Assembly (NCBI GenBank): GCA_038223355.1
Contig: JBBRHB010000001.1
Span: 1 to 30,625, forward strand
Source of the DNA: Chloroflexales bacterium
GTDB lineage: Bacteria; Chloroflexota; Chloroflexia; Chloroflexales; Kallotenuaceae
Reading direction: 5' to 3'
Length of the DNA stretch: 30,625 nucleotides
Under the pieces are notes generated by a model, which worked only from the letters and a program-made list of their open reading frames with translations, did not search any database and had not been told where the DNA came from. Position numbers and translations under genes: made by a program. Below are positions 28,121 to 30,625 of the stretch, piece after piece (within the stretch, counting starts at the first letter, position 1; the number at the start of each line of letters is the position of its first letter).

Positions 28121-30625
28121 CTAGCAGATTGCATCACAAACGGCAGATGGAGCGGGTAGGACGCTATCCCTCTGGCAGCGCCACACCATAAGCTCCTCCG
28201 GCATGCCCTTCAGGAAGCGGGAGGGTTGTTTGGTGCGGTCTTGTAGTGTCTTGGCCCAGGAAATACATAGCCGACGCTTGGCACGGGTCATGGCGACGTA
28301 GAGGACGCGGCGCTCCTCGGCCAGCTCCTCGGTTTTGCGGCAGTTCCACATGGGGAGCACGTCGTCCTCGGCACCGATGAGGAAGACGAGCGGCCATTCG
28401 CGGCCTTTGGCGGTATGTATGGTCATCATCGCCACGCGACCGTCGTCCTCGGGCTGGTAGTCGATGGGCGCGGCCAGGGCGGCATAGTGCAGAAAGGCGG
28501 TGAGGCTCTGATCTGCGGTCGTGCGGCAGTAGTGGGCGATCATGGTGCGCCAGCGTTCGTTCAGTTCGGCCCAGCGTAGGTCATCGGCTGCAACTGCCGT
28601 GGGCAGTGTGACGAGCCAGAGGTCTGCTGCATCGAGCTGTAGTGGCTGATTGACGCGCGTCGCCAAACGAGCGCCCAGCCCGTCGCCGAGGCCGGTAGTA
28701 TGCGCTCGGGCACCGGCCAAGGCAAGCAGTTCGTTTTCACCTTCGAGCGGGAGACCGGCCGCCTGGATGCCGAGGGCCACGAGCGGTAGCGCCTCGTCTA
28801 AGACGTCGAGTTCTTTTTCATTAGCCAATAGGTCTAGCAAATGTTCGAAGACTTCCGCGTTCATGCGTACGTCGTCCAGCGCATGGTGCGTTTGTGCTTC
28901 CTTGATGCCGAAGCGCTGCGCCAAATCTTCGAGGGCATGCGACTCGTTGGGCAGGAGACGGCGTGCCAGTGTGCAGGTATCCAGCAGGGGGTTGGCGGGG
29001 AGTGGTAAGCCTAGACTGCGTGCCACACGGCGGAGGATCGGCTGATCGAACTGCTCAATGTTATGGCCGACCAGGGTTGCCGCGCCCATGAACGATAGGA
29101 GCTGTGGCAGGACGGCCGCAGGGACTGGCGCGTTGCGCACGTCTTGCGCACGAATGCCATGGATTTGCGTTGCGTCGGGCGAGATTGTGCCACGGGGCCG
29201 GACCATGTTATGGAAAGGATCGTCGCATGGCCGGCCGTCAGCGATTGATAGGGCTGCGACCTCCAGGATCTCGGCGGTGTTCACATGATGGTCGCTGGTC
29301 TCTAGATCGTAGAGCACGAAGGGACCACGCCGCAAGGTTTCGTAGCGCATCAAGAGCATTTGGCCCAACCGCCAGGCCTGCGCACTGAGGCTGAAGCGAA
29401 TAGTCAGCGCATCGCGGAGTTGCAAAGCCAGACCGTCTTGCTCGGGCGGCAAAAGGGTTCCCACGGCGATCAGGAAGGTACCGGGCACAAGCTCGGAACT
29501 GTCTTGCTCGACGCTAACCTGATGGTGCAGGTAGTGTGTTAGGACATGCTCCACAATGGTGGCGGCGGCAGCACCATCAACAGTGCCATCATGCCGAAGC
29601 ACAATGGATTGTCCGGCGGTGATCGCTGTGTGCAGGCGGCTGACGGGCTCGACCAAGGGTCGTGCGAGGACGTCGAGTAGGCCTAGGGCATCGGCCCGGC
29701 GCGAGACTGGAATGGGGCTGCGACGCGCGGCCAAGACCGTGAGCAGCTTTTCGACGACGACATTGATAGGCGCGTGGGCGACCGGTAGCAGTTCGGCGGC
29801 GACGGTGTCCAGAAATGCGTGCATGGTGGCGCGAGTCAGAGGTGTTAGCCGGTCGGCATAGTCATCGATGTGCTTGGCGAGTGTACTTATGGATACGCCG
29901 GCCTCGCCCGCGATGCGGCGAAGGTGAATCATCGTAAGCTCATCGACCAGCACGCGCGGCCAGTTCAGGGCAGGTTCGAAATCATCGTCGTGCAAGGCTG
30001 CCATCAGCGCCAAATAGCGGAGCGCAGCCTGTACGTCGGGCTGGTCGAAAAAACGGCCCGGCTGGATGCGGGTGAGCGGAATGGCATGGCGCAGGAGCGC
30101 TTCCTCGGCCCGATTCGCGCGCGCATGGATGCGATACAGGACGGCAATGTCACCATAGCTGTAGCGACCGGTGCCACAGGCACGTTGGATTTGTTGCGCA
30201 AGCCACTCGCCCTCGGTTTCATCGTTGGTGCAGCCCTGGCAGTCGATCGGATAGTGATCGGCCTGCACGGCCACGGCGTGCGCTGTGCCACCTGCAGCGG
30301 TAATGACATATTGGGCAGCGCGCACAAGATTGCCAGCAGAACGATAGTTTTCCTCCAGAACAAAACGGCGTGGGCGATAGTCGCGCGTATAACCGGCGAG
30401 CAGCGACTGCGCGTCGGCATCGCGCCAGCCAAAGATAGCTTGGTTGGCGTCCGCCACAGTCATGACGTGCTGCTGAGGTGAGCGTGGTGGAGCGATCAAG
30501 CGAATCAGCTCATATTGCTCGGGGGATACGTCATGAAACTCGTCGATGAAGAGATAGCGGCAGCGGTTACGAATGAGGGTCGCCGTCTCATCATCGGTTT
30601 GTAGCAGATGAACGGCCTTGAGGAT
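28121..30625 (-). CDS. UvrD/Rep-like SF1 helicase with inserted RecJ-like remnant and DEDDh 3'-5' exonuclease (5' end outside window)
   Basis: The frame stays open to the window edge. Helicase motifs YLFIDEFHD, VADANQAIFGWR, LEENYRS, AVLYR, MTIHTAKGREW and EERRVLYVAMTRAK. Exonuclease motifs YDLET, GHNIEQFD and HHALDD. Confidence 0.9.
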   Translation of the reverse strand: MLKAVHLLQTDDETATLIRNRCRYLFIDEFHDVSPEQYELIRLIAPPRSPQQHVMTVADANQAIFGWRDADAQSLLAGYTRDYRPRRFVLEENYRSAGNLVRAAQYVITAAGGTAHAVAVQADHYPIDCQGCTNDETEGEWLAQQIQRACGTGRYSYGDIAVLYRIHARANRAEEALLRHAIPLTRIQPGRFFDQPDVQAALRYLALMAALHDDDFEPALNWPRVLVDELTMIHLRRIAGEAGVSISTLAKHIDDYADRLTPLTRATMHAFLDTVAAELLPVAHAPINVVVEKLLTVLAARRSPIPVSRRADALGLLDVLARPLVEPVSRLHTAITAGQSIVLRHDGTVDGAAAATIVEHVLTHYLHHQVSVEQDSSELVPGTFLIAVGTLLPPEQDGLALQLRDALTIRFSLSAQAWRLGQMLLMRYETLRRGPFVLYDLETSDHHVNTAEILEVAALSIADGRPCDDPFHNMVRPRGTISPDATQIHGIRAQDVRNAPVPAAVLPQLLSFMGAATLVGHNIEQFDQPILRRVARSLGLPLPANPLLDTCTLARRLLPNESHALEDLAQRFGIKEAQTHHALDDVRMNAEVFEHLLDLLANEKELDVLDEALPLVALGIQAAGLPLEGENELLALAGARAHTTGLGDGLGARLATRVNQPLQLDAADLWLVTLPTAVAADDLRWAELNERWRTMIAHYCRTTADQSLTAFLHYAALAAPIDYQPEDDGRVAMMTIHTAKGREWPLVFLIGAEDDVLPMWNCRKTEELAEERRVLYVAMTRAKRRLCISWAKTLQDRTKQPSRFLKGMPEELMVWRCQRDSVLPAPSAVCDAIC

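Follow-up and report, generated by a model that had tools for sequence, protein, structure and literature searches.

A UvrD/PcrA-type helicase of a Chloroflexales bacterium with a degenerate RecJ-like domain and a nested DEDDh exonuclease in its 2B region

In a 30,625-nucleotide stretch of DNA from a Chloroflexales bacterium (the window; it makes up the whole of contig JBBRHB010000001.1 in assembly GCA_038223355.1, which has 826 contigs), an open frame on the reverse strand encodes what its architecture and homology mark as a superfamily 1A (SF1A; UvrD/PcrA/Rep-type) helicase. Midway through subdomain 2B this protein carries a long insert, in which a DHH domain of the bacterial RecJ type, predicted to be dead as a nuclease, is itself interrupted by a DEDDh (DnaQ-like) exonuclease domain with all of its catalytic residues. 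We think it probable that the protein is a single-chain 3'-5' helicase with a dead-RecJ scaffold in 2B and an intact exonuclease, used in chromosome repair or under replication stress. The recognizable parts of the frame are as follows, with residues numbered in the window protein (P0001).

28121..30625 (-): whole open frame, UvrD/PcrA-type helicase with nested module; 834 aa and a stop codon, incomplete at its 5' end, where the contig stops
30338..30625 (-): end of helicase domain 1A, residues 1-96 (Pfam, family alignment, PcrA/UvrD alignment)
30530-30544 (-): motif II, DEFHD, residues 28-32
30437-30457 (-): motif III, VADANQA, residues 57-63
30338-30352 (-): motif IV, ENYRS
29741..30337 (-): first half of domain 2A and native first part of 2B, residues 97-295 (aligned to PcrA 213-439, UvrD 210-485)
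29930-29962 (-): WPRVLVDELTM, at the position of the PcrA PKRGIG duplex-binding motif
29330..29740 (-): N-terminal part of the predicted dead RecJ-type DHH domain, residues 296-432 (AlphaFold2 model, RecJ structure match, hhalign)
29573-29638 (-): RLHTAITAG...VDG, residues 330-351
29354-29392 (-): SLSAQAWRLGQML, residues 412-424
28811..29329 (-): DEDDh (DnaQ-like) 3'-5' exonuclease domain, residues 433-605 (Pfam RNase_T, structure match, invariant residues)
28871-29320 (-): DEDDh motifs DLET (440-443), HNIEQFD (521-527) and HHALDD (580-585)
28556..28810 (-): C-terminal part of the predicted dead DHH domain, residues 606-690 (hhalign; the RecJ-aligned range of the model reaches residue 665)
28724-28789 (-): LPLVALGIQAAGLPLEGENELL, residues 613-634
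28124..28555 (-): return into 2B (last helices) and second half of 2A, residues 691-834 (PcrA 514-656 alignment; Pfam UvrD_C 702-792)
28394-28423 (-): motif V, TIHTAKGREW
28280-28318 (-): motif VI, EERRVLYVAMTRA

Helicase motifs II to VI are collinear (DEFHD, VADANQAIFGWR, ENYRS, TIHTAKGREW and EERRVLYVAMTRA), align to those of PcrA and UvrD, and are conserved in the family, here represented by an alignment of 20 homologues to which all statements of invariance refer. Residues D28, E29, H31, D32, V57, A58, D59, Q62, N93, R95 and S96 are invariant. Pfam assigns UvrD-helicase to residues 1-76, RNase_T to 437-593 and UvrD_C to two segments, of which the second is 702-792, and the protein matches PcrA in sequence with an expectation value (E) of 4e-43. 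Residues 18-244 align to PcrA 213-439, 18-295 to Escherichia coli UvrD 210-485, and 691-823 to PcrA 514-656; because the alignment to PcrA and UvrD holds up to residue 295 and again from residue 691, the ~395 residues in between (296-690) stand in the middle of 2B, in place of the roughly 30 found in those enzymes. A template-free model of a full-length, 71%-identical homologue (predicted local distance difference test score, pLDDT, 89; predicted template modelling score 0.84) matches Rep (1uaa_B) with Z 42.0 over 598/633 residues, and the 1A/1B/2A/2B fold is present.

The motor also has features peculiar to the family, motif II being DEFHD rather than DEFQD and motif III VAD..Q rather than VGD. 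The PKRGIG motif of PcrA contacts duplex DNA; here NVPKRGIG of PcrA aligns to the family-invariant NWPRVLVD, the GIG motif is not present, and W222, P223, R224, V227, D228, E229, T231 and M232 are invariant. Since GIG is replaced by the invariant acidic PRVLVDELTM, the 2B subdomain of this family may handle duplex DNA differently from that of UvrD and PcrA.

The innermost domain of the insert is the exonuclease. An AlphaFold2 model of residues 285-700, computed without templates (mean pLDDT 92.9), contains an RNase H-like exonuclease fold that matches the epsilon subunit of DNA polymerase III (Pol III; 1j53_A) with Z 24.9 and a root-mean-square deviation (rmsd) of 1.2 over 163 residues, and the corresponding match of the full-length homologue model has Z 22.7. 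The exonuclease domains of PolC, DinG and Exo X match the insert model nearly as well as epsilon, that of Staphylococcus aureus DinG with Z 23.9. All five catalytic positions (D440 and E442 of the Exo I D-x-E motif, D527 of Exo II, and H580 and D585 of the Exo III H-x4-D motif) are invariant.

On either side of this exonuclease, the insert resembles the DHH domain of bacterial RecJ. The best match, to Thermus thermophilus RecJ (2zxo_A; Z 18.1, 166 residues, rmsd 2.5), pairs model residues 24-381 (the last being residue 665 of the window protein), hence both sides of the exonuclease, with RecJ residues 46-270; further matches are to RecJ 1ir6_A (Z 17.5), S. aureus RecJ (8y30_A; Z 15.4) and archaeal RecJ/GAN/Cdc45-like proteins (Z 12.7-14.3). 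In the full-length homologue model, residues 493-852 match RecJ with Z 16.8, and all three nesting levels are reproduced. The N-terminal part ends in a helix, SAQAWRLGQ, that is the counterpart of the AFKLAQAL helix of RecJ, and the C-terminal part runs from a helix, LPLVALGIQAAG (in which A623 occupies the position of the motif IV Asp), through PLEGENELL, which is like PL.GENR.L of RecJ, to linker helices.

For comparison at the profile level, the exonuclease was cut from the family alignment and the flanks were aligned by hhalign to a set of 20 ordinary RecJ sequences from related genomes, which gave collinear matches for the N-flank (P 1.1e-4) and the C-flank (P 2e-4). Against RecJ proteins that themselves carry a DnaQ-like domain (RecJ::DnaQ, described below), the N-terminal parts match with E 1.1e-6, the C-terminal parts with E 6.9e-7 and the joined flanks with E 5e-10 (178 columns); against free-standing modules with a degenerate DHH domain, the flanks without exonuclease match with E 8e-10. 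Because the model reaches Z 18.1 and the profiles E 5e-10, compared with 0.05-0.6 for controls in which the flanks were deliberately swapped, the likeness lies far beyond chance, and by model and profile alike the flanks are a RecJ-type DHH domain. Neither Pfam (E ≤ 1) nor NCBIfam gave a DHH or RecJ match for the window protein, and a search of PDB sequences with the N-flank as a single sequence returned a chance match only and no RecJ. Nor does Pfam find a DHHA1 or RecJ OB domain at E ≤ 1, and the assigned parts leave no stretch over that could hold either.

The metal ligands of RecJ were mapped residue by residue through the profile alignment, and their state was counted in the 20 homologues.

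RecJ motif I, first Asp: D346; Asp in 7/20 homologues
RecJ motif I, second Asp: T348; Asp in 11/20 homologues
RecJ motif I, third Asp: D350; Asp in 20/20 homologues
RecJ motif II, Asp: A387; Asp in 1/20 homologues
RecJ motif III, DHH: D405, A406 and a gap; lost
RecJ motif IV, Asp: A623; Ala or Ser in all homologues

What remains of motif I is HDGTVDG, of which D350 is the sole invariant RecJ metal ligand, and judged by these positions the RecJ part can no longer work as a RecJ-type nuclease. It is nonetheless well conserved elsewhere (AWR at 417-419, LPLVA at 613-617 and GAR at 638-640), and since conservation is strong, a structural or DNA-guiding role is suggested for the remnant.

Much of this had been put forward in an earlier note, prepared from the sequence alone, which read the frame as a UvrD helicase with a RecJ-DnaQ module captured in its 2B region. 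The frame and every motif lie where that note had placed them, the pairs of RecJ-like strings it had matched by eye are exactly those that the profile alignment pairs, and the deviating motifs it had pointed out (DEFHD and VADANQA) proved to be specific to the family. The complete DnaQ-type domain that it described between the flanking segments was recovered with all five DEDDh residues (RNase_T, E 2e-26), and the proposed nesting at three levels holds in two independent template-free models, that of the insert alone and that of the full-length homologue. Modelling of the flanks onto the DHH fold, set in advance as a check, gave RecJ matches in both (Z 18.1 and 16.8). Loss of the DHH motif and the other metal ligands was borne out per residue, with D350 as the invariant exception, and the alignments to UvrD and PcrA do place the insert inside 2B.

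Capture of a RecJ-DnaQ module, also claimed there, draws support from relatives in which the same nesting occurs outside a helicase. An exhaustive phmmer search with the insert, with representatives taken at 50% identity, returned 75 representatives at E ≤ 1e-30, mostly helicases of ~1000 aa with the insert at ~475-890. Among its other matches are proteins of ~740-765 aa that combine Pfam DHH, RNase_T, DHHA1 and RecJ_OB (seen in P0135, P0137, P0159, P0186 and P0192); these RecJ::DnaQ proteins keep the GDRDVDG, VDCG, DHH and GTVAD motifs, and their exonuclease lies between the AFKL-type helix and motif IV, the same loop as in the window family. Free-standing proteins of 410-430 aa (P0132, P0143, P0165 and P0151) have degenerate DHH motifs around the same exonuclease and are encoded by complete genes, that of P0132 lying inside a 124-kb contig. 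Because the same nesting exists both in complete RecJ and in free-standing proteins, the module was most likely acquired ready-made.

A further 35 helicase representatives have no strong match to the family N-flank model, and some of them have canonical DEFQD/VGDDEQS motifs. Since their flanks are homologous to those of the window family (E 2e-22) and of RecJ::DnaQ (E 1.9e-9), the nested module is common to the whole sampled helicase-exonuclease clade. In a tree of the exonuclease domains, RecJ-nested and free-standing sequences group together (support 82) inside a larger group with the helicase-nested ones (support 81), and exonucleases fused to GIY-YIG domains stand apart.

Two of these relatives deserve mention in their own right. 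The complete RecJ proteins with a nested DEDDh domain (P0135, P0137, P0159, P0186 and P0194; loci L076 and L077) are annotated only as RecJ, one cluster of them having been seen on 23 contigs, and they are candidate single-chain enzymes combining 5'-3' with 3'-5' exonuclease activity on single-stranded DNA (ssDNA). One free-standing gene (L073:7001-8284) lies a few genes downstream of ComEC-like and ComEA-like (HHH) genes.

From this architecture, these homologies and the state of the active sites, we infer what the protein does, how its two activities are coupled and what part it plays in the cell. The ATP-driven motor would translocate 3'-5' on ssDNA, like its relatives, and open the duplex. 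The DHH remnant, lacking metal ligands, DHHA1 and OB, would serve as a scaffold, and the exonuclease, nested between the AFKL-type helix and the motif IV helix, would ride on the mobile 2B lobe and trim 3' ends bared by unwinding, whether ends of DNA or of RNA in hybrids. Since 2B is the lobe that rotates and touches the duplex in enzymes of the UvrD type, various ends would be open to an exonuclease mounted there: recessed or nascent 3' ends and flaps, located at the junction or in front of it; the 3' end that trails on the tracked strand, by analogy with RecB and AddA; or RNA in hybrids. Such an enzyme would resemble WRN or exonuclease-bearing DinG. Processing in repair or replication stress is the most likely role, with defence and RNA-directed roles as weaker rivals. 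A bolder version, which we offer tentatively, is that the dead-RecJ/DEDDh unit is a portable 3'-end-trimming cassette that arose in RecJ, became free-standing and was planted in 2B, where opening and closing of the lobe would gate the nuclease and the RecJ remnant would still bind ssDNA and steer the 3' end. Were this so, the protein would be a bacterial WRN-like enzyme in which helicase conformation controls an exonuclease.

Several points weigh against the repair helicase-exonuclease proposed here. The strand displaced by a 3'-5' translocase comes off with its 5' end leading, and the route of a 3' end to the exonuclease is not obvious. The motor may behave unlike UvrD, because motifs II and III deviate (DEFHD and VAD) and the acidic VLVDE replaces GIG. 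Walker A, with about 190 N-terminal residues, is absent from the assembly, and the intactness of this copy is assumed from its open frame. The exonuclease tree, a quick FastTree reconstruction, shows kinship rather than the direction of transfer, because its sequences were picked for likeness to the query and its root is unknown. Finally, so patchy a distribution fits an accessory function no less than one in core repair.

The patchy distribution is also among the points in favour of the first alternative, namely that the protein is a single-gene effector against phages or plasmids, whose helicase would load onto the ends of foreign DNA for degradation by the exonuclease. The full-length insert was found in 3/15 genomes of the taxonomic family (the window's own genome included), in 1/2 other genomes of the genus and in 4/401 genomes of a Chloroflexota sample; named homologues come from Herpetosiphonaceae and from metagenome-assembled genomes of Thermomicrobiales. 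Atlas clusters with the UvrD and RNase_T pair, a criterion of domain pairing only, extend to Gemmatimonadota, Cyanobacteriota, Bacillota and Bacteroidota, and one such cluster is half viral. The PADLOC models for GajB and DEDDh match the protein, and the genes flanking one homologue (P0006, at L069:1-14800) comprise two very large ones for nSTAND NTPases, one for ThsA_Macro and a NADase_transloc-like one. However, the PADLOC matches are generic ones to UvrD and DnaQ, and neither a GajA-like gene nor any other partner adjoins the gene in four contexts (the window and three homologous loci), between any of which no neighbouring genes are shared. The setting at L069 is not repeated at the other loci: the window and two homologous loci have housekeeping or metabolic surroundings, those in the window being chromosomal (trpS, trpE/G, gyrA and map), and no signs of mobile elements were seen. 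The neighbourhoods thus lend defence no support, and we regard a defence effector as unlikely. Identity with Gabija GajB was rejected, since the match is generic to UvrD and no GajA (ATPase-TOPRIM nuclease) neighbour occurs in the window or the three homologous loci.

A second alternative, which we hold to be improbable, is that RNA is the main substrate of the exonuclease, which would clear R-loops or RNA primers; such a role has been proposed for DinG proteins that carry an exonuclease and, where transcription and replication collide, for PcrA/UvrD. DEDDh enzymes include RNases, as the Pfam name RNase_T reflects, and the exonuclease of S. aureus DinG is among the best structural matches. In addition, PcrA/UvrD is reported to suppress R-loops (PMC8318588), and Bacillus subtilis DinG to have a 3'-5' exo(ribo)nuclease (PMC12525004). 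Against this, the nearest relatives in sequence and fold are the DNA proofreading domains of Pol III epsilon and PolC, and a preference for RNA or DNA is not readable from sequence. That the flanks are instead a generic alpha/beta linker, DHH-like by convergence or modelling artefact, as the missing Pfam DHH match and the fruitless N-flank search might suggest, is highly improbable given two template-free models from different alignments with both flanks in order (164-166 residues, RecJ Z 16.8-18.1), separate and collinear matches of each flank to RecJ profiles that include strings specific to bacterial RecJ such as PL.GEN and that the controls fail to reproduce, and the existence of intermediates with active RecJ motifs.

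The proposed repair helicase-exonuclease resembles several known systems and coincides with none of them. It shares the four-subdomain motor and collinear motifs II-VI with UvrD, PcrA and Rep (PDB 2is6, 3pjr and 1uaa), from which it differs in its ~395 extra residues in 2B, VLVDE for GIG, DEFHD and VAD..Q. With bacterial RecJ, a 5'-3' ssDNA exonuclease (2zxo, 1ir6 and 8y30), it shares the DHH fold, RecJ-type helices and the PL.GEN string, whereas it lacks the ligands of motifs II, III and IV, has motif I cut down to one invariant Asp and holds a foreign domain in a loop. RecJ::DnaQ and the free-standing proteins have the exonuclease at the same DHH loop and homologous flanks; both lack a helicase, and RecJ::DnaQ keeps all RecJ motifs along with DHHA1 and OB. 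WRN and the exonuclease-bearing DinG proteins of S. aureus and B. subtilis also join a helicase and a DEDD-type 3'-5' exonuclease in one chain, but they are superfamily 2 helicases whose exonuclease is N-terminal, not nested in a regulatory lobe, and without a RecJ-derived scaffold. WRN pairs a 3'-5' helicase with a 3'-5' exonuclease and would, by analogy, be the nearest functional counterpart in this pairing of polarities. RecB, AddA and AdnB fuse a UvrD-like 3'-5' motor to a nuclease and match the full-length homologue model (RecB, Z 26.1; AddAB chain B, 3u44_B, Z 25.2; AdnAB, Z 23.6-26.2), but they are members of multi-subunit complexes, and their nuclease is a PD-(D/E)XK endonuclease appended at the C-terminus.

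Helicase-nuclease fusions are central to repair, as in RecBCD, AddAB, WRN and DinG. To our knowledge no studied UvrD/PcrA/Rep enzyme has a nuclease in 2B, and we know of no studied helicase-nuclease fusion in which 2B, the autoinhibitory lobe of an SF1A motor, houses the nuclease. In full-text literature searches we met neither a UvrD-type helicase that encloses an exonuclease or a remnant of RecJ, nor a RecJ protein that encloses a DnaQ domain; the earlier note had allowed for an already described family, and none was found in the searched literature. Homologues are recorded in databases as UvrD-helicase domain-containing or Pol III epsilon-like proteins, and these records understate the architecture because the dead DHH part is invisible to Pfam. 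The family is sizeable, with more distant members carrying the same module, and uncharacterised in the searched literature. It offers a natural test case for regulation of a second catalytic activity by 2B movement, and an example of domain nesting in three steps with living intermediates: an active RecJ with a nested exonuclease, a free-standing dead module, and the module in a helicase.

The full-length homologues (950-1036 aa) start ~190 residues before residue 1 of the window protein and have a normal Walker A (PGSGKT; motif I GSGKT), for which reason the window copy appears truncated by assembly, with no visible mutation. Retrieval of the missing N-terminus, which the earlier note had proposed, was unsuccessful: the ~190 residues with Walker A were not found on any other contig of the assembly. 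Two contigs considered as carriers of the lost segment (C822 and C542) were rejected, as they hold other UvrD-like genes. In a comparison with two genomes of the same genus, collinearity ends near window position 26690, and the orthologue in one of them (G001) lies on a 3-kb contig.

Some other genes of the window are of separate interest. The gyrA gene (16964-20848, minus strand; 1294 aa) has a Pfam Intein_splicing match at residues ~161-553, where it separates the N-terminal part of the DNA_topoisoIV domain from the remainder. A 129-aa frame (27748-28137, minus strand) with a partial match to Uma2 (putative restriction-endonuclease-like) overlaps the helicase stop by 17 nt, and a second partial Uma2 match lies at the N-terminus of a frame at 22870-24144 (plus strand), which continues as a GDPD phosphodiesterase.

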